NCBI RefSeq assembly: GCF_003790525.1
Contig: NZ_CP033635.1
Origin: Escherichia coli
GTDB lineage: Bacteria > Pseudomonadota > Gammaproteobacteria > Enterobacterales > Enterobacteriaceae
DNA length: 64,000 bases
Strand: one strand, 5' to 3'
The position numbers and the translations under genes are program-made. Below, in pieces: positions 146 to 64,000 of this stretch (position 1 is its first letter; each line of letters opens with the position of its first letter). The notes beneath the pieces are model-generated. The model saw only the letters and a program-made list of their open reading frames with translations. It was not told the DNA's origin and did not search any database.

Positions 146-847
146 CTGAACACACCGGCACAGCTCTCTTTGCCACTTTATCTTCCTGACGACGAAACCT
201 TTGCAAGTTTCTGGCCGGGGGATAACTCCTCTTTACTGGCCGCGCTGCAAAACGTGCTGCGTCAGGAACATAGCGGTTACATCTATCTCTGGGCACGCGA
301 AGGCGCGGGGCGCAGCCATCTGCTGCACGCGGCTTGCGCGGAATTGTCACAGCGTGGCGATGCGGTGGGTTATGTCCCGCTGGATAAACGCACCTGGTTT
401 GTTCCGGAAGTGCTCGACGGTATGGAGCATTTGTCGCTGGTCTGTATCGACAACATTGAGTGTATTGCAGGCGATGAGTTGTGGGAGATGGCGATTTTCG
501 ATCTCTACAATCGAATTCTGGAATCGGGTAAAACACGGTTGTTGATCACCGGCGATCGTCCACCGCGGCAGTTGAATCTGGGATTACCGGATCTCGCGTC
601 GCGTCTCGACTGGGGGCAGATCTACAAATTGCAGCCACTTTCTGATGAAGATAAGTTGCAGGCGCTACAGTTACGCGCTCGTTTGCGTGGTTTTGAACTG
701 CCGGAAGATGTGGGGCGTTTCTTGCTGAAGCGGCTCGACAGAGAAATGCGCACGTTATTTATGACGCTGGATCAGTTGGATCGTGCGTCGATTACCGCGC
801 AACGTAAGCTGACCATTCCGTTTGTGAAAGAAATTCTGAAGTTGTAG
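146..847 (+). CDS. hda: DnaA regulatory inactivator Hda (AAA+; N-terminal clamp-binding motif QLSLPL)
   Basis: Track ORF 101-847 (248 aa) matches Hda. The mature protein is recalled to begin at a CUG so that the clamp-binding motif is N-terminal; the CTG at 146 gives 233 aa ([16 protein letters not shown]...). Confidence 0.85.
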
Positions 848-8734: not shown

Positions 8735-10450
8735 TTACTTCAGCGGCGAACGGTTACGATCAATGCCGTAGCGTTCGATCTCTTTATACGGCACGGTTTT
8801 TGACTGGCGCTTGCGCACATCAACCAGCGTCACACGGTCGGTACAGGAGTAACAGGGATCAAGGCTACCGATAATCAGCGGTGCGTCAGAAACGGTATTG
8901 CCGCGCAGCATGTAACGCAGCACTGGCCAGTTGGCGTAGGTGGCGGCACGACAGCGCCAGCGGAACAATTTTTGGTTATCACCGAGCATGCTCCAGTGCA
9001 CGTCTTCACCGCGTGGCGCTTCAACAAAGCCCAGCGCGAATGCGTGAGGTTTATAGCTAAAGCCTTCGGTCAGCAGTGGGGTATCCGGCATGTTGTCGAG
9101 GGCAAATTCCAGCATTGCCAGCGAATCAAACGTCTCTTTGACACGGACCATCACGCGGGAGAAGACATCGCCGCCGGTAAAGGTAAACAGCGTTTTGGGA
9201 ATATTACCGTAGTCGGCGTAGGGGTGATCAAAGCGCAAATCACGGGCAAAACCACTGCCGCGGATCAGCGGCCCGACAGGGCTATAATCACGGGCGATTT
9301 GTCGGTCGAGAATGCCAATGCCCTGAGTGCGTTGTTCCATATTCGGCGTGGCAAGCAGCATCTCTACCAGCTCCGACACGTCGGCGCGCATCTCGCGCAC
9401 CAGTTTCAGCGTTTGCAGACGTTGCTCTTTGAGAATATCGCGGCGAACACCACCAATCAGATTCAGACCGTAGGTTTTACGCGACCCGGTCAGCAATTCC
9501 GCCATCGTCATCGACTTTTCCCGCACGCGGAAAAATTGCATAAAGCCGGTATCAAAACCAACAAAATGGCAGGAGAGGCCAAGGTTGAGCAAATGACTAT
9601 GCAGCCGTTCGACTTCCAGCAGAATCGAGCGAATAGTATGCGCTCGTTGCGGCACCTCAATCCCCAGTGCATTTTCAACCGAGTTGGTATAGGCCACACT
9701 GTGGGCAAAACCGCAAATCCCACACACGCGGTCGGATAAGAAGGTCACTTCGTTGTAGCCCATCCGCGTTTCTGCCAGTTTCTCCATGCCGCGATGGACA
9801 TAAAACAGGCGGTAATCAGCATCGACAATTTGCTCGCCATCCACAAACAAGCGGAAGTGACCTGGTTCATCGGAGGTGATATGCAGCGGGCCGACAGGGA
9901 TCACCCGCGCATCGCTGTTGCCCTCGTTGATAAACGGATACGTTTCGGTATCAGTCGTCGGTTCTGGGCGCAGTCGATAATCCATCGCGTCTTTGCGCAG
10001 CGGATGCATATCTTCCGGCCAGTCATCGGGCAACACCAGCCGACGCTGATCCGGCAGGCCAACCGGAATCAGCCCGTACATATCGCGAATTTCTCGCTCG
10101 CCCCAGACCGCGGCAGGGACGCGCGGTGTGACTGACGGAAACTCCCGACTGTCGGCATCGACCAGTGCCTTCACCACGATCCAGCATTTTTCGGCCCCTT
10201 CCATAGAAAGGGCATAATAAACCGCGTAATGACCGTTAAGTGTCCGCTCGTCGTTGCCAAACAGGACTGGAAGCCAGCCATCATGTTGATAATAAAGATA
10301 ATGCACAACGTCAGGCAGCAGATTGATTTTCACCGTAATGGTGACCTGTTCAGGCGTTTGTCGCTCTTCATCCAGCACCGCGCCGGGGAACTGCGTTTTC
10401 AGGGCGGCGAGAATCGCTTCGCCACGATTTGACGATGAATTAACGTTCAC
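8735..10450 (-). CDS. hyfG: Hydrogenase-4 large catalytic subunit (NiFe, HycE/NuoCD-like)
   Basis: Track ORF 8735-10495; the likely start is the GTG at 10450 ([11 protein letters not shown]) with GGAGA upstream, overlapping the hyfF stop. C-terminal DPCxxC NiFe-binding motif present (DPCYSCTDR). Confidence 0.85.
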
Positions 10451-12020
10451 TGTGTTTCTCCGAAACAGATGCGGTGCCTGAAGGCAAAAAATCATGCCAG
10501 GTGCTACGTTGTGCAGGCAGGTCGTGCGTCCCTGAGAGGACTATAGTGGAAGCGCCCGCCAGGATCCTGATGACAGGTTGTGGAATATGCGTTCCCATCG
10601 CCAGCATCATGACCAGCAGAATCACCATTGGCGAGGTGGTCAACCAGCCAAGTTCACCCCGGTTAACGGCCTGCGGCGGTTTCGCCATTAACACCCGCGC
10701 AGCCATCCGTACCAGGCCCGCCAGCACCAGCGTTAACAGCAATAACAGCAGGACGATAAGCAGCAGATGATTACGCGCCAGCCCTGCGGTAACGGTCATA
10801 AATTCGCTAAGAAAAATGTTGAAGGGCGGCATCCCGGCCAGCGCCAGCGCACCGCCGCCAAACAGCACGGCGGTAAATGGCATGATTTTGAGCATTCCGC
10901 AGACGACGTTGAGATCGCGCGTGCCGTACTTGAGCAGTACATTGCCGGAACCGCAGAACAGCAGCGTTTTTGCCAGACTGTGGTTTAAGGTGTGCAGCAG
11001 CGCGGCAAAAATTCCCAGCGGCCCGCCAATGCCTAACGCCACCGCGACCAGTCCCATGTTCTCCACGCTGGAGTACGCCAGCAGACGCTTAATGTCCCGC
11101 TGTACCAGAATGAAAAATGCCGCCACGGCAACCGACAACATGCCGAAGATGAGCAACAACCGGTTGGGGAAATCGCTGCCGATGGCCTGGCAAATAATGA
11201 TGTAATAGCGAATCAGCACCAACAGCGCGCAGTTCAGCAATACGGCGGAGAGCAGGGCGCTGACCGGACTCGGCGCTTCACTGTGAGCATCTGGCAGCCA
11301 GGCGTGCATGGGGAATAGCCCGGTTTTAGTGCCAAAGCCAATTAGCACAAACACAAAGGCCAACAGCATTAATGTTGGGTCAAGCAAGGACGATTGCTTA
11401 AGAACCTCGCTCCAGAATATCGCCATTTCTGCCTGCGGCATAACGCTGGCGGCGTTGGCGTATACCAGCACGGTACCGAACAGACCAAAAGCGACACCAA
11501 CAGTACAAATAATGATGTACTTCCATGCAGCTTCCAGCGATGAACGCTGACCGTAAATGCCTACCAGAAACGCCGAGCTTAAGGTGGTGGCTTCGATCGC
11601 CGCCCACATCACAATCAGGTTATTGCTGGTAACAACCAGCAGCATGGTGAACAAAAACAGATGGAAGAAACCGTAGTAATCGCACAGCGTAACGGGTGAA
11701 AGCTCGCCGTGCTCCACTTCATGACGCATGTAGCCAATCGAGTAAACACCGGTGAGAAAGCCAATCACACCAAGAATGGCGAGGAACAAACCGCCCAGAC
11801 CATCAATATGAAGCCACAGTCCCGCAGCGAATATTTCTCCCGCATCAGCGGCTGTTTGGACCACCCAGAGTGCCAGAATCAGCAGCAGTGTGATCCCTAA
11901 GCTATGTAATACTGTCACCGCGCGAGTCGGAGAGTGCCCCCGTTTCCGGCAGGCAAAACAGAGCAGCGAAAAAAGCAGCGGCGTGAGCAGGAGTAAAGCG
12001 AACATCACAGAATAACTCAT
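10440..12020 (-). CDS. hyfF: Hydrogenase-4 membrane subunit (NuoL/M/N antiporter-like)
   Basis: 526-aa polytopic membrane ORF in hyf order. Confidence 0.9.
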
Positions 12021-17988: not shown

Positions 17989-18459
17989 TCAGGCGTGTTC
18001 TTTCAGCCAGTTCAGCACAACGTCGTGGTGATTGCTGGTTTTGAAATCGTCAAAGACATGTTCGATTTTGCCATCAGCGTCAATCAGGAAGCTGATGCGA
18101 TGAATACCATCGTAGGTTTTGCCCATGAAGGACTTTTCACCCCAGACGCCGAATTGTTCGCACACCTGGTGGTCCTCATCAGACAGGAGCGTAAAGTTAA
18201 GCAGCTCTTTTTCCGCAAAACGGGAGAGTTTTTCGGGTTTATCGGTGCTGATACCCAGCACATCGACGCCCGCTTTTTTCAACTCATCCATGTTATCGCG
18301 TAAGCCGCAGGCCTGTACGGTACAGCCGGGGGTCATGGCTTTCGGGTAGAAATAAACCAGAACACGCTGTCCCTGGAAGTCGGTCAAATTAACTTGTTCT
18401 CCGTCTTGATCCGGCAAGCTAAATTTCGGTGCGATATCACCGGCTTTCAGTGGATTCAT
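17989..18459 (-). CDS. bcp: Thiol peroxidase (peroxiredoxin, bacterioferritin comigratory protein)
   Basis: 156-aa ORF with peroxiredoxin active-site context (FYPKAMTPGCT). Confidence 0.9.
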   Translation of the reverse strand: MNPLKAGDIAPKFSLPDQDGEQVNLTDFQGQRVLVYFYPKAMTPGCTVQACGLRDNMDELKKAGVDVLGISTDKPEKLSRFAEKELLNFTLLSDEDHQVCEQFGVWGEKSFMGKTYDGIHRISFLIDADGKIEHVFDDFKTSNHHDVVLNWLKEHA

Positions 18460-19031
18460 TACTTAACTCCATCCTGTTCATCATGTTGGGAATAATTGAC
18501 GACGTTAATACTGCCTTGTGCATTGAGTTCTGTACATAGGGCTTTGAACGCTTGCTCAATATTTGCTGCGTCCGCAGATGCGGGGCTGTGGGCAGTTATC
18601 TGAATATGCAACTGCGCAGCCCGTTCATTTTCAGCAGGTTGCGTGCGCGACACCAGCTCCGCAATGTTCATATGATGCGCGTCGAAAAGTGCTGTGAAGC
18701 GTTCAATTAAATGCGGGGAGTCTGCCACATCGACCTGAACCCAGACAGATGCTGGCATTGGCGGACGCGGACGCGCCGTCGTGCGCTTCATCACGATTAA
18801 AAGATCCAGTTCGGCACCTTTCAACGGTAACGTTGATTCAATCAGAGTAATGGCATTCCATGAACCGGAAAGCAGCATGATAAACGTGAACTCTTCTCCC
18901 AGCATCGCCAGGCGACTGTCTTCAATATTACAGCCGCAACTACTGACATGACGGGTGATGGTGTTCACTATTCCAGGGCGATCGGCACCCAACGCAGTGA
19001 TCACCAGATAATGTTGCGATGACAGTGTCAA
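18459..19031 (-). CDS. gcvR: Glycine cleavage system transcriptional repressor (ACT domains)
   Basis: Track ORF 18459-19097; the recalled GcvR N-terminus MTLSSQHYLVITALGADRPG corresponds to a TTG start at 19031 with AGGAA upstream (190 aa). Confidence 0.8.
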   Translation of the reverse strand: MTLSSQHYLVITALGADRPGIVNTITRHVSSCGCNIEDSRLAMLGEEFTFIMLLSGSWNAITLIESTLPLKGAELDLLIVMKRTTARPRPPMPASVWVQVDVADSPHLIERFTALFDAHHMNIAELVSRTQPAENERAAQLHIQITAHSPASADAANIEQAFKALCTELNAQGSINVVNYSQHDEQDGVK

Positions 19032-19176
19032 ACTGGTTATTCCTTCAAGGGGTGAGTTGTTCTTAAGGAAAGCATAAAAAAAACATGCATACAACAATCA
19101 GAACGGTTCTGTCTGCTTGCTTTTAATGCCATACCAAACGTACCATTGAGACACTTGTTTGCACAGAGGATGGCCC

Positions 19177-20055
19177 ATGTTCACGGGAAGTATTGTCGCG
19201 ATTGTTACTCCGATGGATGAAAAAGGTAATGTCTGTCGGGCTAGCTTGAAAAAACTGATTGATTATCATGTCGCCAGCGGTACTTCGGCGATCGTTTCTG
19301 TTGGCACCACTGGCGAGTCCGCTACCTTAAATCATGACGAACATGCTGATGTGGTGATGATGACGCTGGAGCTGGCTGACGGGCGCATTCCGGTGATTGC
19401 CGGGACCGGTGCTAACGCTACTGCGGAAGCCATTAGCCTGACGCAGCGCTTCAATGACAGCGGTATCGTCGGCTGCCTGACGGTAACCCCTTACTACAAT
19501 CGTCCGTCGCAAGAAGGTTTGTATCAGCATTTCAAAGCCATCGCTGAACATACTGACCTGCCGCAAATTCTGTATAATGTGCCGTCCCGTACTGGCTGCG
19601 ATCTGCTCCCGGAAACGGTGGGCCGTCTGGCGAAAGTAAAAAATATTATCGGAATCAAAGAGGCAACAGGGAACTTAACGCGTGTAAACCAGATCAAAGA
19701 GCTGGTTTCAGATGATTTTGTTCTGCTGAGCGGCGATGATGCGAGCGCGCTGGACTTCATGCAATTAGGCGGTCATGGGGTTATTTCCGTTACGGCTAAC
19801 GTCGCAGCGCGTGATATGGCCCAGATGTGCAAACTGGCAGCAGAAGGGCATTTTGCCGAGGCACGCGTTATTAATCAGCGTCTGATGCCATTACACAACA
19901 AACTATTTGTCGAACCCAATCCAATCCCTGTGAAATGGGCATGTAAGGAACTGGGTCTTGTGGCGACCGATACGCTGCGCCTGCCAATGACACCTATCAC
20001 CGACAGTGGTCGTGAGACGGTCAGAGCGGCGCTTAAGCATGCCGGTTTGCTGTAA
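19177..20055 (+). CDS. dapA: 4-hydroxy-tetrahydrodipicolinate synthase
   Basis: ATG at 19177 ([18 protein letters not shown]) with AGAGGA RBS; 292 aa. Confidence 0.95.
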
Positions 20056-28199: not shown

Positions 28200-31100
28200 T
28201 TATTCCGGGCGCGGCTTCAGCGGGAAGCGGCGGCGCACCAGCACAAAGAACAGCGGCACGAAGTAAATAGCCAGAATAGTGGCCGAAATCATCCCGCCCA
28301 TTACGCCAGTACCCACCGCATGCTGACCACCGGAACCGGCACCCGTGCTGGTTGCCATTGGCAATACGCCGAAGATAAATGCCAGCGAAGTCATCAGAAT
28401 CGGGCGTAAACGCTGACGGCAGGCGTGGAGCGTCGCTTCAAACAGGTCGTGGCCTTTTTGGTTCATCTCGTTAGCAAACTCGACGATCAGGATGGCATTT
28501 TTCGCCGATAAACCAATGACCGTTAACAGGCCCACCTGGAAGTAAACGTCGTTTTCCAGCCCGCGCATCCAGGTTGCCAGCAGCGCGCCGATAACCCCCA
28601 GCGGCACGACCAGCATTACCGAGAACGGCACCGACCAGCTTTCATACAACGCCGCAAGACACAGGAATACCACCAGCAAGGAAATGGCGTACAGCGCCGG
28701 AGCCTGCGCGCCGGAAAGCCGCTCCTGATACGACATCGCCGTCCACTCCAGACCAAAGCCGTTTGGCAACTGCTTCACTAACGATTCCATAATATCCATC
28801 GCCGTACCGGTACTGACCCCCGGTGCGGCTTCCCCTACAATCTCTACCGCAGAATAACCGTTATAGCGTTCCAGACGCGGCGAGCCTGTCTCCCAGCGTG
28901 AGGTCGCGAAAGCAGAGAAGGGCACCATGCCGCCATCTTTATTTCGGACATACCAGAGATTGATGTCATCTGGCAGCATGCGATACGGCGCAGCTGCCTG
29001 CACATAGACTTTCTTCACGCGACCGCGATCCATAAAGTCATTCACATAGCTCGAACCCCAGGCGGTTTGCAGTGTGTCGTTAATATCGTCGATAGCAACG
29101 CCCAGCGCCTGAGCTTTACGCTGGTCGATATCAATCTGCAACTGCGGACTGTCGTCGAGGCCGTTATGGCGCACACGGGTTAGCTCCGGGTTTTCCGCCG
29201 CCAGCGCCAGCAACTGGTTACGTGCTGCCATCAGCGCATCGTGACCCGCTCCAGCGTGGTCCTGCAACTCCATATCAAAACCCGCAGAACTACCAAGACC
29301 GCTAATTGCTGGCGGGCTGCTGGCGATAACGCGAGCTTCTTTAATCTTGTTAAACGCCTTCGTTGCACGCTCGATAATGGCAAACGAGGTGCCGGTCTTA
29401 CTGTCGCGTTCGCTCCAGTCTTTCAGGCGGATAAACATTCTCGCCACGTTTTGCCCGTTACCCCCAGGGCCAGAACCAACAGTGGCAAACACCGACATGA
29501 TGTTGTCTTTTTCATGGGTGAAGTAGTATTTCTCGATTTGCTCAACGACTTTCAGGGTCTGTTGTTGGGTTGAACCGCTGGGCAACTGTACCGAGGTAGT
29601 AAACATGCCACGGTCTTCCAGTGGCAAGAACGACGTCGGCAAACGCAGGAACAGGAACACCATGCCGCCAAGCAGCAGGACATAAATCACAATCCAGCGC
29701 AGGCTACGGTGGAGAATTTTCGCCACCCCTTTTTCGTAGCGTTCGGCGTTGCGGTTAAACATCTGGTTAAACCAGGCAAAAAAGCCTTTTTGCCCGTGAT
29801 GCTCACCTTTTTTCAGTGGCTTAAGTAGCGTGGCACACAGAGCCGGAGTGAGGATCATCGCTACCAGTACTGACAGCACCATCGCTGCAACAATGGTAAT
29901 AGAGAACTGGCGATAGATGGCACCGGTGGTGCCGCCGAAGAAGGCCATTGGTACAAATACCGCCGAAAGCACCATCGCAATCCCGACCAGTGCCCCCTGG
30001 ATCTGCCCCATCGATTTACGTGTGGCTTCGCGAGGAGTGAGTCCTTCCTCACTCATAATACGTTCGACGTTTTCCACCACCACGATGGCGTCATCCACCA
30101 GCAGACCGATCGCCAGCACCATCGCGAACATGGTTAAGGTGTTGACGCTGTAACCGAAGGCATAAAGTACGGAGAAGGTTCCCATCAACACCACCGGCAC
30201 GGCGATAGTGGGTATCAGCGTGGCGCGGAAGTTTTGCAGGAACAGATACATAACGAGGAAAACCAGAGCGATAGCTTCCAGCAGCGTTTTCACCACGTCT
30301 TCAATGGAGGCTTTAACAAACGAGGTGGTTTCATACGCCACCTTGTATTCCAGTCCGTGCGGGAAATACTGCGCCAGCTCGTCGAGACGATTGAGCACCA
30401 GCTCCGCTGTCGCCATTTCGTTCGCGCCGGAGGCCAGTTTTACCCCCAGCCCGGAGGCTGGCATACCATTGAAGCGGCTAAGATAATCGTATTTTTCCGC
30501 CCCCATTTCGATGGTGGCGACATCGCCCAGCCTTACCTCTGAGCCGTCCTGATTCACCCGCAAGGTGATATCGCGGAACTGTTCTGGTGTTTGTAGCAGT
30601 GACTGGGCGTTAATGGTGGCGTTGAGCGCCTGCTTATCGACGGAAGGCGTACCACCAAGTTGCCCAACCGCAATCTGCGCGTTCTGTGACTCAATGGCAT
30701 CAGTGACATCTTTAGCCGTCATCTGGAAACTGTTGAGTTTCGCCGGGTCCAGCCAGATACGCATGGAATATTGCGAACCATAGGCATCGATATCCCCGAC
30801 GCCATTCACGCGGCTTAACGGATCCTGAATATTACTGGCAACGTAATCGGCAATATCCTGTTTATCCATCGAACCATCGGTAGAGACGAAGGCAATGGTC
30901 AGAATATTGGTATCGCCGGTTTTACGCACCGTCACGCCCTGATTTTGCACCGCCTGCGGTAACTTTCGCATGGCTGATTGCAGCTGGTTTTGTACTTGCT
31001 GCACGGCTTCGTCCGGATCGGTGCCTGCTTTAAAACTTAAAGTGACAGATGCCTGGCCGGTGCCACTGCTCTGAGACGACATATACATGAGATTATCGAG

Positions 31101-31476: not shown

Positions 31477-33177
31477 TTACATCAGCTGACTTTCCTCACC
31501 CTCCGCAGAGCGAAAGCTAATACTCACTAACGTGCCGCCGCCGGAAGGTTGCGAAAAAGTCAGCGTCCCACCCAATCTTTCCGCGCGTTCGCGCATGATA
31601 TTCAGACCATAATGGCCTTCGGGTTCTTTCGGTTCACCGATGCCAATCCCGTTGTCGCGAATATAGACTGTGTGATTGCCATCCGGCGCGGTGACGCAGC
31701 TAACGGCGATTTCGCTGGCGTTGGCGTGCTTCATCGCATTCAGCACCGCTTCGCGAATAATTTGCAACAAATGCACCTGCATTTGCGCATCCAGCGCCAG
31801 GGTTGGCAGACGGCAGTCGAGGGTCAGTTTGGCGCTGGTTTGATTTTGTAACGTATCCAGCATTTCCCTCAACGCGGAGGGGAGATCCGCCTGCTGCAGC
31901 GTCAGGCGGAAAGTAGTTAACAGCTCGCGTAACTGCCGATAAGCATCATTCAACGCCTGGGAAAAATCGGCCATGATACTTTGTGCGGTGGCATTATCTT
32001 CCGGTATCGAACGCTTCAGTAACGTCAACTGGATACGTAAGTAAGAAAGTACCTGAGCCAGCGAGTCGTGCAATTCGCGGGCGATGGTCGCACGTTCTTC
32101 CATCAACAATAACTGCTGAAAATGCTTCTGCGCCTGATTAAAGTACAAACCGCGTCCCAGCATCGACGAAACGCTGTTAAGCAGCGGTTCTGATGATGAA
32201 ACGTGACTATTTTGCCAGTGCAGTTCGCCGTAAACCGTCTCTTGCATTGTCACCGGTAAAATCTGCATCGGCAATTCCGGGTTTGGCTGCCCTTCGCTAA
32301 TCCGCCAGTTGTCACCGACATTTAACTCCAGATATTCAGCCGCTTCATTGTCGCGAACAATCTGCAAAATATGGCGGAAACAATGCACATCAATCTGGCT
32401 GGTGTTTAGCGCCTGCGAACACTGATACAACACCTCCAGACGACGCTTGGCCTCGTGGAGATCGCGGGTCTTTTCTTCTACTGACGCCTCCAGCGAACGG
32501 TACAATTTATGCAGCTCGCTCGACATCTGGTTAAAGGTTTTTGCAAGCAGGCCAAGCTCATTCGGCAGGCTGGTATCCAGCGGCGGCGAGTCGAACTGCC
32601 CGTGTTCAATACGCTGACTGGCGGTAACCAGCTGATTCAGCGGGGCAACCACCTGATGGCGTATGCGGCGCAAAGTAAAAAAGACCAGCGTGAAAATACC
32701 GATGCCGCCAGCCAGGGAAATCGCCACCACCAGCAGCATTTTGCGTTCAGCGTAGTGCTGTAAAGCCAGCACGAACAGGTCTATCTGATTAACATAATTA
32801 TTAATATTGGCCTGATACCACGGCAAGTCGCCCTTGCTGAGCCGATTATTCATCTCCAGCCAGTTGGCATTCAGATGCGCATAGCGGGTTTTTACTGCCT
32901 CTGGCACATACCAGACGTTGAGATTGGTTAATACCGGTGAATGCAGTGCCTGCTGAAATAACTGGCGATGTGCATTGAGTTGTGGACTGCCACTTTGCAA
33001 ATCGTAGCCCAGGCGGTAACTCTGCATACGCAGCGATCCGGCAATATTGATAGCCTCAGCGTCGCGCAAACTGCTCGCCAGAGTTAGCAGAGCGATACCC
33101 GTGGAAAGAATCGACAGCAGCACAATGTAAAAAAAGGCCCGGGCCAGACTGGCCGAGACGGGTCGTTTAACAATCAC
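31477..33177 (-). CDS. narQ: Nitrate/nitrite sensor histidine kinase
   Basis: Track ORF 31477-33192; the recalled N-terminus MIVKRPVSASLARAFFYIVLL corresponds to the GTG at 33177 with GGAGAA RBS (566 aa); HAMP and HisKA_3 (ELHDSLAQ) regions present. Confidence 0.9.
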   Translation of the reverse strand: MIVKRPVSASLARAFFYIVLLSILSTGIALLTLASSLRDAEAINIAGSLRMQSYRLGYDLQSGSPQLNAHRQLFQQALHSPVLTNLNVWYVPEAVKTRYAHLNANWLEMNNRLSKGDLPWYQANINNYVNQIDLFVLALQHYAERKMLLVVAISLAGGIGIFTLVFFTLRRIRHQVVAPLNQLVTASQRIEHGQFDSPPLDTSLPNELGLLAKTFNQMSSELHKLYRSLEASVEEKTRDLHEAKRRLEVLYQCSQALNTSQIDVHCFRHILQIVRDNEAAEYLELNVGDNWRISEGQPNPELPMQILPVTMQETVYGELHWQNSHVSSSEPLLNSVSSMLGRGLYFNQAQKHFQQLLLMEERATIARELHDSLAQVLSYLRIQLTLLKRSIPEDNATAQSIMADFSQALNDAYRQLRELLTTFRLTLQQADLPSALREMLDTLQNQTSAKLTLDCRLPTLALDAQMQVHLLQIIREAVLNAMKHANASEIAVSCVTAPDGNHTVYIRDNGIGIGEPKEPEGHYGLNIMRERAERLGGTLTFSQPSGGGTLVSISFRSAEGEESQLM

Positions 33178-33382
33178 ACGCGTCTTCTCCACAAAAAATC
33201 ATTAATGTTCCAGTTCGCTGAAACGCAATTTAGTCAGTGATGGGATTATTTGATCTGCCACAGTTTATAGCGAAATAGTTACTTATTCTGGGCACATGAA
33301 CATTGCCGATTCCCCTGTAAGTCGGGTAATAACAACACTCATATAAAGAATAAGGTTTTTACAACCAAAAAAGAAGGTCGTT

Positions 33383-51988: not shown

Positions 51989-53388
51989 ACACTCGCCAGC
52001 TACTGAGCGTCGGTATCGATATCGGCACCACCACCACCCAGGTGATTTTCTCCCACCTGGAGCTGGTTAACCGTGCGGCGGTGTCGCAGGTGCCGCGCTA
52101 CGAATTCATCAAACGCGAAATTAGCTGGCAAAGCCCGGTGTTCTTTACCCCTGTCGATAAACAGGGTGGTTTAAAAGAAGCGGAACTGAAAACCTTAATC
52201 CTGGATCAATATCAGGCTGCGGGCATTGCGCCGGAAAGTGTTGATTCTGGTGCCATCATCATCACCGGTGAAAGCGCGAAAACCCGCAACGCTCGCCCGG
52301 CGGTGATGACGCTCTCCCAGTCGCTGGGCGATTTTGTCGTCGCCAGCGCCGGGCCGCATCTCGAATCCGTGATCGCCGGTCACGGTGCCGGGGCGCAAAC
52401 TCTTTCTGAACAACGGCTGTGTCGGGTACTGAATATCGATATCGGCGGTGGCACTGCGAACTACGCCCTGTTCGATGCCGGAAAAATCAGCGGCACCGCC
52501 TGCCTCAACGTCGGCGGTCGCCTGCTGGAAACCGACAGCCAGGGGCGCGTGGTTTACGCTCATAAACCGGGGCAGATGATTGTGGATGAGTGCTTCGGCG
52601 CAGGCACTGACGCCCGTTCGCTGACCGGCGCGCAGCTGGTGCAGGTTACCCGCCGGATGGCAGAGCTGATTGTCGAAGTGATTGACGGAACGCTTTCGCC
52701 GCTCGCGCAGGCATTGATGCAAACCGGTTTGCTGCCCGTAGGTGTTACGCCCGAAATCATTACGCTTTCTGGCGGCGTTGGCGAATGTTATCGCCACCAG
52801 CCCGCCGACCCGTTCTGTTTTGCCGATATTGGCCCGCTTCTGGCAACGGCGCTGCATGACCATCCGCGCCTGCGTGAGATGAACGTGCAGTTTCCGGCGC
52901 AAACCGTGCGCGCCACGGTGATTGGCGCGGGTGCACATACCCTTTCGCTCTCTGGCAGCACAATCTGGCTGGAGGGCGTACAACTGCCGCTGCGCAACTT
53001 GCCGGTGGCGATCCCAATTGATGAAAAGGATCTGGTGAGTGCCTGGCAACAGGCGCTGATTCAGCTGGATCTTGATCCTAAAACTGACGCGTACGTGCTG
53101 GCGCTTCCCGCCTCGCTGCCTGTGCGTTACGCCGCGGTACTGACGGTCATCAACGCGTTGGTCGATTTCGTCGCGCGTTTTCCGAATCCGCATCCCCTGC
53201 TGGTGGTGGCCGGGCAGGACTTTGGTAAAGCTCTGGGCATGTTGTTGCGCCCACAGCTACAACAACTCCCGTTGGCAGTCATTGACGAAGTGATTGTCCG
53301 CGCGGGGGACTATATCGACATTGGTACGCCTCTTTTTGGCGGATCGGTTGTGCCGGTGACGGTGAAATCACTCGCATTTCCTTCCTGA
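51985..53388 (+). CDS. eutA: Ethanolamine ammonia-lyase reactivating factor
   Basis: 467-aa ORF; ATGA overlap with eutH. Confidence 0.9.
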   Translation: MNTRQLLSVGIDIGTTTTQVIFSHLELVNRAAVSQVPRYEFIKREISWQSPVFFTPVDKQGGLKEAELKTLILDQYQAAGIAPESVDSGAIIITGESAKTRNARPAVMTLSQSLGDFVVASAGPHLESVIAGHGAGAQTLSEQRLCRVLNIDIGGGTANYALFDAGKISGTACLNVGGRLLETDSQGRVVYAHKPGQMIVDECFGAGTDARSLTGAQLVQVTRRMAELIVEVIDGTLSPLAQALMQTGLLPVGVTPEIITLSGGVGECYRHQPADPFCFADIGPLLATALHDHPRLREMNVQFPAQTVRATVIGAGAHTLSLSGSTIWLEGVQLPLRNLPVAIPIDEKDLVSAWQQALIQLDLDPKTDAYVLALPASLPVRYAAVLTVINALVDFVARFPNPHPLLVVAGQDFGKALGMLLRPQLQQLPLAVIDEVIVRAGDYIDIGTPLFGGSVVPVTVKSLAFPS

Positions 53389-53399
53389 GGGAACGACTT

Positions 53400-54761
53400 A
53401 TGAAACTAAAGACCACATTGTTCGGCAATGTATATCAGTTTAAGGATGTAAAAGAGGTGCTGGCTAAAGCCAACGAACTGCGTTCGGGGGATGTGCTGGC
53501 GGGCGTTGCTGCGGCAAGCTCACAGGAGCGCGTGGCGGCAAAGCAGGTGTTGTCGGAAATGACCGTAGCGGACATCCGCAATAATCCGGTGATTGCCTAT
53601 GAAGATGACTGCGTGACGCGGCTGATTCAGGACGATGTTAACGAAACGGCCTACAACCAGATTAAAAACTGGAGCATCAGCGAACTGCGTGAGTATGTGC
53701 TGAGCGATGAAACCAGCGTGGACGACATTGCCTTTACCCGCAAAGGGCTGACCTCGGAAGTGGTAGCGGCGGTAGCGAAGATTTGCTCCAACGCGGACCT
53801 GATCTACGGCGCGAAGAAAATGCCGGTGATCAAAAAGGCCAATACCACCATCGGTATTCCGGGCACCTTTAGCGCCCGCTTGCAGCCAAACGATACCCGT
53901 GACGATGTGCAAAGTATCGCCGCGCAAATCTACGAAGGGCTTTCCTTCGGGGTGGGCGATGCGGTGATCGGCGTTAACCCGGTGACTGACGACGTGGAAA
54001 ACTTAAGCCGCGTGTTGGATACCATCTATGGCGTGATCGACAAATTCAACATCCCAACTCAGGGCTGCGTACTGGCGCACGTCACCACCCAGATCGAAGC
54101 GATTCGTCGCGGCGCACCGGGCGGGCTGATTTTCCAGAGTATTTGCGGCAGCGAAAAAGGGCTGAAAGAGTTTGGCGTGGAGCTGGCGATGCTCGACGAA
54201 GCGCGCGCAGTGGGTGCAGAGTTTAACCGTATCGCCGGGGAAAACTGCCTCTACTTCGAAACCGGACAAGGTTCGGCGCTGTCCGCTGGCGCTAACTTCG
54301 GCGCTGACCAGGTGACGATGGAAGCGCGTAACTATGGGCTGGCGCGTCATTACGATCCGTTTATCGTCAACACCGTGGTCGGTTTTATTGGGCCGGAGTA
54401 TCTCTACAACGACCGCCAGATTATCCGCGCGGGCTTAGAAGATCACTTTATGGGCAAGCTGAGCGGCATCTCTATGGGCTGTGACTGCTGCTACACCAAC
54501 CACGCTGACGCTGACCAGAACCTCAACGAAAACCTGATGATCCTGCTCGCCACCGCAGGCTGTAACTACATCATGGGGATGCCGCTGGGTGATGACATCA
54601 TGCTCAACTACCAGACTACGGCCTTCCACGACACCGCCACTGTGCGTCAGTTACTCAACCTGCGCCCGTCACCGGAGTTTGAACGCTGGCTGGAAAGCAT
54701 GGGCATTATGGCAAACGGTCGCCTGACCAAACGGGCGGGCGATCCGTCACTGTTCTTCTGA
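53400..54761 (+). CDS. eutB: Ethanolamine ammonia-lyase large subunit
   Basis: 453-aa ORF starting 11 bp after the eutA stop. Confidence 0.95.
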   Translation: MKLKTTLFGNVYQFKDVKEVLAKANELRSGDVLAGVAAASSQERVAAKQVLSEMTVADIRNNPVIAYEDDCVTRLIQDDVNETAYNQIKNWSISELREYVLSDETSVDDIAFTRKGLTSEVVAAVAKICSNADLIYGAKKMPVIKKANTTIGIPGTFSARLQPNDTRDDVQSIAAQIYEGLSFGVGDAVIGVNPVTDDVENLSRVLDTIYGVIDKFNIPTQGCVLAHVTTQIEAIRRGAPGGLIFQSICGSEKGLKEFGVELAMLDEARAVGAEFNRIAGENCLYFETGQGSALSAGANFGADQVTMEARNYGLARHYDPFIVNTVVGFIGPEYLYNDRQIIRAGLEDHFMGKLSGISMGCDCCYTNHADADQNLNENLMILLATAGCNYIMGMPLGDDIMLNYQTTAFHDTATVRQLLNLRPSPEFERWLESMGIMANGRLTKRAGDPSLFF

Positions 54762-59727: not shown

Positions 59728-59940
59728 ACGGCCTGAGTTGTAATAATAAAGTTCCAGATGTTATATCGTATCGCGTAATCCGTTACGACGGTTTGCTGTT
59801 GAGAATTGTTTTACTTTTCATTTCAATAGTTGACAACTCCCCATTATGCCACTTTTTCAACCGATTTTCGTCAGATATTGGCTAATTCGACCGTTCACGC
59901 CATAATCAGCCTTTTAACCCGCAAAAAGGTAACGAATACC

Positions 59941-60366
59941 ATGGAGATACGCGTATTTCGCCAGGAAGATTTCGAAGAGGTCATCACCCTTTGGGAGCGT
60001 TGCGACTTGCTGCGTCCGTGGAACGATCCGGAAATGGACATCGAGCGTAAGATGAACCATGACGTCAGTTTGTTTCTGGTCGCTGAGGTAAACGGTGAAG
60101 TGGTCGGAACGGTGATGGGCGGTTATGACGGGCATCGCGGGTCTGCTTATTATCTTGGCGTGCATCCAGAGTTTCGTGGGCGTGGGATTGCTAATGCGTT
60201 GCTTAATCGGTTGGAGAAAAAGCTGATTGCTCGCGGCTGTCCGAAAATTCAGATCAACGTGCCGGAAGATAACGACATGGTGCTCGGAATGTATGAACGC
60301 CTGGGATATGAACACGCCGACGTGCTGAGTCTGGGTAAGCGTTTGATTGAAGATGAAGAGTACTGA
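59941..60366 (+). CDS. ypeA: GNAT-family N-acetyltransferase
   Basis: Track ORF 59830-60366; the ATG at 59941 ([27 protein letters not shown]) gives 141 aa. Confidence 0.85.
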
Positions 60367-62490: not shown

Positions 62491-63792
62491 TTACTGCTTT
62501 AACGCCGCATACACCTGATCAACTACCCAACCATAAGTTGCAATCGGTAGCTGACCGCTTTCGAACATATTGGGATTTTTTTGTGGATCGGCAACTGGCG
62601 AATGTGGCTTGTTGCTTAACATCACAATCGCCATATGATTCACCGGATCGATAACGGTCACCGTCCCGGTCCAACCTGTGTGACCGTAGGTTTGCGGGCT
62701 TGCCAGCGTGCCAAACGTCGGCGTCATGGTGGCATTACCATTCACGCGCCAGCCAAGGCCAAAAGTGGCATCTTCCTTAGAGCTGGTGGTGAACATCTTC
62801 ACCGTTTCTGCATTGAACAGCTGCACATCACCATAGCCACCGCCGTTCAGCATCGTTTGCATTAACACCGCAATATCGCCGGTATTGGAAAACAAACCTG
62901 CGTGCCCGGAAACACCGCCCATCGAATAAAAGGCTTTTTCATCGTGCACCTGACCCCAGAGAGTGGAGGTGCGGATATTCGGGAAGTGAATCACGCCATC
63001 GCGGGTATTGCCGTTCAGTTCCGTGGCGGCAATTTGCTGTGGTTTAAAGCCTTTCAACAGCGGATTAAACACCGTATGCGTCAGGCCGAGCGGGCGATAA
63101 ATCGACTCTTCAACATAGTGGTCAAGCGGCTGACCGGTGACCGACTCGACGATAAATCCAAGCAGCATATAATCGACATCGCTGTAGATATGCTTGCTGC
63201 CGGGCTGATACTCCAGCGGCGTGCGCTTGATCATCTCCAGCGTCTGGCCTTTATCCTGGGAATATAACGCGCCCGCGACCGCTTTATTCGGGTATTGCGG
63301 ATCTGCCGGGAAACCGCCGCTGTGATGCAGCAGATCAGAAATCCGCAGCGTGTTTTTGCCTTTGATCGCATCGTTCGGGCTGTCGGCAAACCCTGGAATA
63401 TATTTCGCAATCCGATCGTCAGGATGCAGTTTGCCTTCGCTCATCAGCTTTTGCAGCGCGAAGTTAGTGGCGTACATCTTGGTGTTTGAGGCCAGATCAT
63501 ACAGCGTCCCGGTGGTGGCTTTTACAGGCTGCGCCATTAACGCGCTGCCATCGTACTTTTTCGCCGCGCCCCAGGCTTTGCGATAAACAATCTGATTATC
63601 TTTTATAATCAGCAGGTTTACGCCGGGATAACCGGCATCAACTTGCTGGCTTATCCAGCGATCCATCTGATTAAGCCGTTCGACGTTAAACCCTGCCTTC
63701 TCTGGCGAACTTTCTGTCAGAACAGGGTATTTTGCGGCGCTGACGCTACAGCTGACAGCCAGCAGAGAAAGATAGAGCATTGTCCGTTTCAT
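62491..63792 (-). CDS. yfeW: Penicillin-binding protein 4B (class C beta-lactamase-like DD-peptidase)
   Basis: Track ORF 62491-63879; the ATG at 63792 (MKRTMLYLSLLAVSCSVSA signal peptide) gives about 433 aa; SxxK-type motif (LASNTK). Confidence 0.85.
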   Translation of the reverse strand: MKRTMLYLSLLAVSCSVSAAKYPVLTESSPEKAGFNVERLNQMDRWISQQVDAGYPGVNLLIIKDNQIVYRKAWGAAKKYDGSALMAQPVKATTGTLYDLASNTKMYATNFALQKLMSEGKLHPDDRIAKYIPGFADSPNDAIKGKNTLRISDLLHHSGGFPADPQYPNKAVAGALYSQDKGQTLEMIKRTPLEYQPGSKHIYSDVDYMLLGFIVESVTGQPLDHYVEESIYRPLGLTHTVFNPLLKGFKPQQIAATELNGNTRDGVIHFPNIRTSTLWGQVHDEKAFYSMGGVSGHAGLFSNTGDIAVLMQTMLNGGGYGDVQLFNAETVKMFTTSSKEDATFGLGWRVNGNATMTPTFGTLASPQTYGHTGWTGTVTVIDPVNHMAIVMLSNKPHSPVADPQKNPNMFESGQLPIATYGWVVDQVYAALKQ

Positions 63793-63796
63793 ATTA

Positions 63797-64000
63797 TCAG
63801 TCCAGATTGACGTTACGGCAGCCAAAGAGCGTGGTGAAAATAAACCCGCAAACCCATGCCACCAGAATCCCGCCTGCATAAACCGCCATTGCAGGAAGGA
63901 TACCTTGTGCTGAGGTCATCAGCGGCAGCGCCACCAGACCAGACGGCCCAAAGGCGCTGTTTAAGCCCATCGGCAGACCCCACCAGGCTATCAGTCCGAT
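63797..64000 (-). CDS. murP: 3' end of a PTS EIIBC-type membrane protein, probably the N-acetylmuramic-acid transporter (partial)
   Basis: Minus-strand frame reads ...[67 protein letters not shown] then stop at 63797-63799, 4 bp before the yfeW start; identity inferred from the recalled murQ-murP-yfeW order. Confidence 0.55.

Follow-up and report, generated by a model that had tools for sequence, protein, structure and literature searches.

The gcvR gene of Escherichia coli very probably starts at a UUG codon conserved among the Enterobacteriaceae, and the upstream part of its longest reading frame appears to be its promoter and leader

The stretch of DNA analysed here (the window; 64,000 nucleotides) is a segment of an Escherichia coli chromosome that runs from hda to murP and includes the hyf, gcvR, dapA, narQ, and eut genes. 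It lies in the orientation opposite to the K-12 map and comes from a non-K-12 strain like SMS-3-5 and GN03551, the 25-kb ends of the window being 100% identical to strains such as these two. The GN03551 segment used as a reference (NZ_CP147535.1, 1469064..1533063) has a single base difference, at 28497, to the first 32 kb of the window, and a 2.2-kb probe around the start of gcvR finds matches in 5,425 of 5,426 complete E. coli genomes. The gcvR locus resembles b2479 of K-12 in its TTG start codon, its length of 190 amino acids, its N-terminus, and its neighbourhood (dapA, gcvR-bcp, and hyf), and the upstream sequences of the two are colinear. A single base distinguishes the two leaders: position 19046 is a G in the window (CTTGAAGG) and an A in K-12 (CTTAAAGG), and this difference sits just 5' of the core of the gcvR Shine-Dalgarno (SD) sequence. 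Elsewhere in the window, eutA and eutB are adjacent, with only positions 53388..53400 between them, whereas these genes are separated in K-12 by an insertion of the cryptic prophage CPZ-55 (6.8 kb).

GcvR is the transcriptional repressor of the glycine cleavage system and has two tandem ACT domains. In K-12, the protein represses gcvTHP through an interaction with GcvA, and this repression is relieved by glycine. The annotated coding sequence occupies 18459..19031 on the minus strand (190 amino acids, TTG start; PGAP WP_000176187.1, K-12 b2479 NP_416974.4) and is followed on the same strand by the annotated bcp (17989..18459). The two genes meet in the sequence TAATG (18457..18461, minus strand), in which the stop codon of gcvR and the ATG of bcp overlap by one base. 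On the other side, dapA (19177..20055, plus strand; ATG at 19177) diverges from gcvR. The longest open reading frame (ORF) of gcvR extends from 18459 to 19097 on the minus strand and would encode 212 amino acids, that is, 22 codons more (19032..19097) than the annotated gene. The first-pass annotation, which was made from the sequence alone, had placed the true N-terminus, MTLSSQ, at the TTG at 19031, and had taken the codon at 19097 for an ATG. The latter was its sole error: the codon at 19097 is a TTG, a second in-frame TTG lies at 19094, and there is no in-frame ATG 5' of 19031 in this ORF.

Translation from the in-frame TTG (19029..19031, minus strand) gives a protein of 190 amino acids that begins MTLSSQHYLVIT..., with the N-terminus MTLSSQ; the N-terminus expected of GcvR is (M)TLSSQHYLVITALGADR. 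When the 212-residue ORF was compared with the NCBIfam model NF008612 (the PRK11589 equivalog), it scored 397 bits against a cutoff of 267, which places it in the GcvR family, and positions 1-189 of the 189 positions of the model fell on residues 23-211. Because position 1 of the model corresponds to residue 23 of the ORF, the GcvR family model starts exactly at the methionine encoded by the TTG. In the Pfam comparison, ACT_6 covers residues 29-104 and ACT covers residues 119-188 of the same ORF, so that the first ACT domain begins six residues after this methionine. A putative GcvR of Vibrio cholerae with a solved structure (PDB 1U8S) is a distant orthologue of the same family, again with tandem ACT domains (E = 5e-39); its residue 4 aligns with residue 28 of the ORF, and its N-terminus thus lies within two residues of that defined by the TTG.

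The signals for initiation point to the same codon. Expressed as the duplex energy with the 3' end of the 16S rRNA, SD strength is -5.7 kcal/mol for the TTG at 19031, compared with 0.0 and +0.2 kcal/mol for the upstream TTGs at 19097 and 19094, and only 8% of random positions reach -5.6 kcal/mol. The SD core, AGGAA (19040..19044, minus strand), is 8 nt upstream of the TTG and is invariant in an alignment of 80 sequences. The UUG codon is thus found where the family profile and the orthologue N-termini begin, with an SD sequence within 5-10 nt. The classic non-AUG start codons of E. coli are those of infC (AUU) and ftsH (UUG); at such near-cognate starts, the initiator tRNA reads the codon with the help of a correctly spaced SD sequence.

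A scan of a genome collection provided 80 gcvR loci from 80 other species of the Enterobacteriaceae, with protein identities of 85-99%. All 80 carry a TTG at the position of the gcvR start, each of its three bases being 100% conserved, and with the window included the UUG occurs in all 81 sequences, whereas nearby synonymous sites are only 40-70% conserved. Of the 80 sequences scored, 29 have an in-frame stop codon close upstream (24-36 nt) and no ATG, GTG, or TTG between this stop and the TTG, so that the TTG is the sole possible canonical start of gcvR in these species; in 17 of the 80, not even a CTG or an ATH codon is found between the stop and the TTG.

The same alignment, which spans positions -110 to +60 around the TTG in the 80 sequences, separates coding from non-coding sequence. 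Downstream of the TTG, the mean conservation at codon positions 1, 2, and 3 is 0.92, 0.97, and 0.69, whereas the 66-nt extension has a flat profile of 0.88, 0.86, and 0.86, with no codon periodicity. What is conserved upstream takes the form of invariant blocks that also lack periodicity, namely AGGAA at -13 to -9 and TTGTATG...GTTTTTTTTATGCTTTCCT at -63 to -35. Moreover, the gap from TGCTTTCCT to the TTG is 33, 34, 35, 38, or 46 nt, depending on the species. Because the distance from this promoter block to the TTG varies by numbers that are not multiples of three, the reading frame is not preserved among species and the extension is not coding. Starts downstream of the TTG were also considered and rejected: a protein begun at the GTG at codon 22 or the ATG at codon 43 would lack the first strand of its ACT domain, and conservation of the coding type is seen from codon 2 onward.

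The transcription start sites (TSSs) of this region have been mapped in K-12 by SMRT-Cappable-seq (PMC6131387, Supplementary Data 1 and 2), in which a gcvR-bcp transcript (b2479|b2480) starts at K-12 position 2599878 (117 reads in M9, 63 in rich medium). Since K-12 and the window are colinear here, this position corresponds to 19059 (minus strand). It precedes the TTG by 28 nt and follows the codon at 19097 by 38 nt. The main TSS is accordingly located inside the 22-codon extension, and the longer ORF cannot be translated from the main mRNA. The transcript start of gcvR was reportedly mapped by Ghrist and Stauffer in 1998 to 27 bp upstream of the UUG start, in agreement with the SMRT-Cappable-seq position. 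The coordinates of the Cappable-seq supplement of 2016 gave no matches for the start region of gcvR.

Upstream of the main TSS, the block TTGTATG...GTTTTTTTTATGCTTTCCT (19066..19094, minus strand) is 99-100% invariant in the 80 species and has, relative to the TSS, the arrangement of a -35 element, 17 nt, and an extended -10 element. The putative extended -10, TGcTTTCCT (19066..19074, minus strand), is 100% invariant and ends 7 nt upstream of the TSS, and the putative -35, TTGTAT (19089..19094, minus strand), is 99-100% conserved; among the 77 sequences that carry the motif, 75 have TTGTAT 17 nt upstream of TTTCCT. A consensus promoter and terminator scan of 18900..19300 found nothing at its threshold, and the assignment of these hexamers is consequently based on the position of the TSS and on conservation. 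In a passage of one paper (PMC2615304), PgcvR is called a "low-level constitutive" promoter with reference to Ghrist and Stauffer 1998, and the poor match of the proposed promoter to the consensus fits both this description and the empty scan. The very codon at 19094 supplies the TTG of the proposed -35 hexamer, and the TTG codon at 19097 lies immediately beside the hexamer. In other words, the two upstream "start codons" of the longest ORF would be a -35 box and its adjoining triplet, and the non-coding extension (19032..19097, minus strand) would hold the 5' untranslated region together with the core promoter of gcvR.

It might still be argued that the longest ORF is real and that GcvR has 212 amino acids from the TTG at 19097, or 211 from that at 19094. 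The frame is indeed open from 19097 both in the window strain and in K-12, and Supplementary Data 2 of PMC6131387 lists a second gcvR-bcp TSS at K-12 2599806 (19131 in the window, minus strand), whose transcript would contain both TTG codons. Against this stand the position of the main TSS downstream of these codons, their lack of an SD sequence and their location at the conserved -35 box, the stop codons in 29 of the 80 sequences, the shifting frame between promoter block and TTG, and the common beginning of NF008612 and 1U8S at the TTG at 19031; a longer GcvR of this kind is effectively refuted already. A milder version would be dual initiation in E. coli only, with the 190-residue GcvR dominant and a minor extended isoform made from the upstream transcript. 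It draws on the same listed TSS and on the stop-free extension, which is seen in E. coli and in some species of Citrobacter. Nevertheless, the table of read counts (Supplementary Data 1 of PMC6131387) was found to contain no entry for this upstream TSS, the upstream codons have no SD sequence, the extension is not conserved as protein, and its peptide, MLYACFFYAFLKNNSPLEGITS, reads as translated promoter sequence. Given the missing SD sequences and the unconserved frame, a long isoform of GcvR is very unlikely.

We conclude that gcvR is translated from the UUG codon at 19031 and not from the top of its longest ORF at 19097, and we put the probability of this reading at about 0.97. The MTLSSQ N-terminus proposed earlier is borne out by the curated K-12 record and PGAP, by the 80 species, and by the SD sequence, the codon periodicity, and the TSS, all of which agree. 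The TTG start is not itself new, as it is in the curated K-12 record, and it is said to be in the literature of 1998 as well. A search of papers for the start codon of gcvR or its UUG found nothing relevant, and neither the TetRP supplement (PMC4909307) nor the TRAINSPOTTER supplement contains data on the initiation site or the N-terminus of gcvR.

The neighbours of gcvR have TSSs of their own. The TSS of dapA is at K-12 position 2599784 (PMC6131387), which is 19153 in the window, and the TTG at 19159 that opens the longest ORF of dapA is only 6 nt from it; the SD energy is -7.6 kcal/mol for the annotated start and -2.7 kcal/mol for this upstream TTG. A further invariant block at 19116..19124, which reads AAAAGCAAG on the gcvR strand and CTTGCTTTT on the plus strand, precedes the dapA TSS by about 30-37 nt and is plausibly the -35 region of dapA. 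With this block near the dapA TSS, the 145-nt spacer between gcvR and dapA can be regarded as a compact divergent promoter region. For bcp, a TSS for this gene only is listed inside gcvR at K-12 2600436 (18501 in the window, minus strand), in addition to the gcvR-bcp transcript (PMC6131387).

The first-pass annotation had made comparable claims for narQ and hyfG, with a GTG start at 33177 and at 10450, respectively, and a plausible SD sequence for each; both starts, and the SD sequences of all three genes (AGGAA at 8 nt for gcvR, GGAG at 9 nt for narQ, and GGAG at 7 nt for hyfG), withstood the comparison. narQ (31477..33177, minus strand; 566 amino acids) has the GTG start at 33177 in K-12 and in PGAP alike. 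Its longest ORF begins at a GTG at 33192, directly after an in-frame TGA, and is only five residues longer. The GGAG that stands 9 nt from the start at 33177 overlaps the upstream GTG, which is itself preceded by a U-rich stretch alone, and the SD energies are -6.4 kcal/mol for 33177 and -3.3 kcal/mol for 33192. Position 2 of the NarQ profile NF008184 and residue 2 of PDB 5IJI_A both correspond to residue 7 of the narQ ORF, and the crystallised NarQ fragments share this N-terminus.

hyfG (8735..10450, minus strand; 571 amino acids) likewise has the same GTG start in K-12 and PGAP, with an 11-nt overlap with the end of hyfF, whereas its longest ORF begins at an ATG at 10495, is 15 residues longer, and overlaps hyfF by 56 nt. 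The SD sequence GGAG 7 nt upstream of the GTG has an energy of -6.6 kcal/mol, compared with +0.6 kcal/mol for the ATG. NCBIfam has no dedicated family model for hyfG and so offers no information on its N-terminus; the paralogue HycE was used instead. Residue 2 of HycE aligns with residue 20 of the extended ORF, that is, residue 5 of the GTG-start protein, and relative to the N-terminus of HycE the GTG form of HyfG is three residues longer, whereas the ATG form would be 18 residues longer. We know of no experimentally determined start for hyfG, and its start is the least certain of the three; initiation at the GTG at 10450 nevertheless appears highly probable.

One may ask whether the curated starts are simply wrong, with hyfG translated from the ATG at 10495 (586 amino acids) and narQ from the GTG at 33192 (571 amino acids). 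No stop codon separates either upstream codon from its gene, with which it is in frame, and the hyfG alternative has in its favour that ATG is inherently stronger than GTG as a start codon. On the other hand, the hyfG ATG has no SD sequence and combines the 18 residues beyond the HycE N-terminus with the 56-nt overlap with hyfF, and in narQ the GGAG that serves 33177 overlaps the upstream GTG, while the NarQ profile begins at 33177. We consider such an error in the curated starts improbable. The GTG codons at 33177 and 10450 thus remain the preferred starts, in accordance with the K-12 and PGAP records, with NF008184 and 5IJI_A for narQ, and with the HycE alignment for hyfG. The TetRP supplement (PMC4909307) lists hda, whereas narQ and hyfG are absent from it.

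The HyfG protein has a second peculiarity, as it is 571 amino acids long in the window and 555 in K-12 MG1655. The K-12 gene lacks 48 nt, corresponding to 9248..9295 of the window (minus strand), which encode 16 residues and are bounded by a 10-bp direct repeat, GCCCGTGATT. Because HycE aligns without gaps with the long form of HyfG, it is K-12 that carries an in-frame deletion, and this deletion affects a conserved segment of the large subunit of the [NiFe] hydrogenase. An 88-nt probe across the segment matches 2,179 genomes, whereas about 4,294 complete E. coli genomes carry this part of hyfG, and hence about half of the hyf-bearing E. coli have a deletion of the K-12 type. In a study of 2020, engineering of the promoter and the C-terminus failed to activate K-12 Hyd-4, and no mention of the 48-nt deletion was found in the searched passages of that study (PMC7654741); a term search of the literature likewise found no paper describing it. 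The deletion may be relevant to the inability to activate Hyd-4 in K-12 (PMC7654741).

How general such over-extension is can be judged from all 60 complete genes of the window, for each of which the longest ORF was compared with the annotated start in PGAP (GN03551) and in the curated record of K-12 MG1655. The two annotations have an identical start codon for 60 of the 60 genes; the PGAP starts are chosen partly from the same family models, and PGAP is consequently not fully independent of the evidence from those models. An in-frame ATG, GTG, or TTG lies 5' of the annotated start in 23 of the 60 genes (38%), which is unremarkable, since random sequence would also offer a start codon before the next stop in about half of all cases. 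Non-ATG starts occur in six of the 60 genes (CTG in hda, TTG in gcvR, and GTG in hyfG, narQ, eutQ, and eutA), a normal number for E. coli.

Besides gcvR (+22 amino acids), narQ (+5), and hyfG (+15), the over-extended genes include all 15 others that had been named as such beforehand, each with an in-frame start codon upstream of the annotated one: hyfA (+13), hyfC (+7), hyfJ (+21), dapA (+6), purC (+3), ypfH (+8), ypfN (+8), nudK (+9), tktB (+21), eutS (+24), eutM (+14), eutK (+2), ypeA (+37), yfeX (+9), and yfeW (+29). To these can be added hda (+15), hyfR (+1), bamC (+1), hemF (+1), and yfeZ (+2), which had not been named. A comparison with the curated K-12 record had been suggested at the outset, and every start named there matches both K-12 MG1655 and PGAP; the corrected starts of narQ, hyfG, and the other genes are the curated ones and in this sense already known.

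SD pairing is stronger at the annotated start than at every upstream alternative in 21 of the 23 over-extended genes of the window. In hyfA, hyfJ, tktB, eutS, eutM, yfeW, and ypfH, the beginning of the family profile coincides with the annotated start or is at most three residues from it, and the annotated ATG of ypeA is also where the structures 4QUS and 4QVT of its protein begin. For ypeA (59830..60366), an NCBIfam model of 147 positions reaches 5-6 residues upstream of the ATG at 59941, where there is no start codon, and this looks like a small inconsistency of the model rather than of the gene. The only two of the 23 genes in which an upstream alternative out-pairs the annotated SD sequence are yfeZ (60347..60353), with -4.3 kcal/mol for the upstream TTG at 60347 and -3.3 kcal/mol for the annotated start, and yfeW (63792..63879), with -4.2 kcal/mol for the upstream ATG at 63879 and -3.0 kcal/mol for the annotated start. 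The PBP4B profile begins at the annotated start of yfeW despite the stronger upstream SD sequence; the protein has 433 amino acids in the window and 434 in K-12. The rarest start codon in the window is the CTG of hda (146..847, plus strand), which PGAP and K-12 alike place at 146, whereas the longest ORF begins at a GTG at 101. A change of 45 nt in the hda start in the 2014 K-12 record is recorded in the TetRP supplement (PMC4909307).

Taken at face value, a longest-ORF track would over-extend 23 of the 60 genes, and start coordinates taken from such tracks should not be trusted; the curated starts are recovered by checking the position of the SD sequence, the N-termini of orthologues, and TSS data. 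The significance of these corrections is mainly one of annotation hygiene, and the curated K-12 annotation is left unchanged. In narQ, hyfG, and the other listed genes, the true start is likewise the in-frame codon that has an SD sequence at the right distance, and the longest ORFs do no more than continue to the next upstream stop. In gcvR, the apparent N-terminal extension seems to be the gene's own promoter, and the weak TTG is conserved family-wide.

We can now propose how gcvR is expressed. A weak, constitutive sigma-70 promoter would fire at around 19059 and produce a 28-nt leader in which AGGAA precedes the UUG by 8 nt. Pairing with AGGAA would position the 30S subunit, and fMet-tRNA would read the UUG through first-position wobble and begin the 190-residue protein MTLSSQ..., the 66 stop-free nucleotides upstream of the UUG serving as promoter and leader. 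This is ordinary near-cognate initiation, in which the initiator tRNA reads UUG or GUG at reduced efficiency. Because of the overlap between the stop codon of gcvR and the ATG of bcp in TAATG, bcp is read from the gcvR transcript, in addition to being served by its own internal promoter.

A weak start codon is commonly read as setting low expression. Across the 80 species, neither the weak codon nor the weak promoter of gcvR varies, which suggests that a low and constant level of GcvR is selected for. We know of no autoregulatory role of the gcvR start codon, nor is one indicated, unlike in infC. It is a matter of even chances whether the invariant UUG and the invariant weak promoter together form a conserved two-layer limiter of GcvR dosage, an idea of which a part may reportedly be contained already in the Stauffer paper of 1998. 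If this is true, the limiter would keep GcvR low relative to GcvA and would thereby let glycine relieve the repression, and replacing the UUG by an AUG would lead to super-repression of gcvTHP and gcvB.
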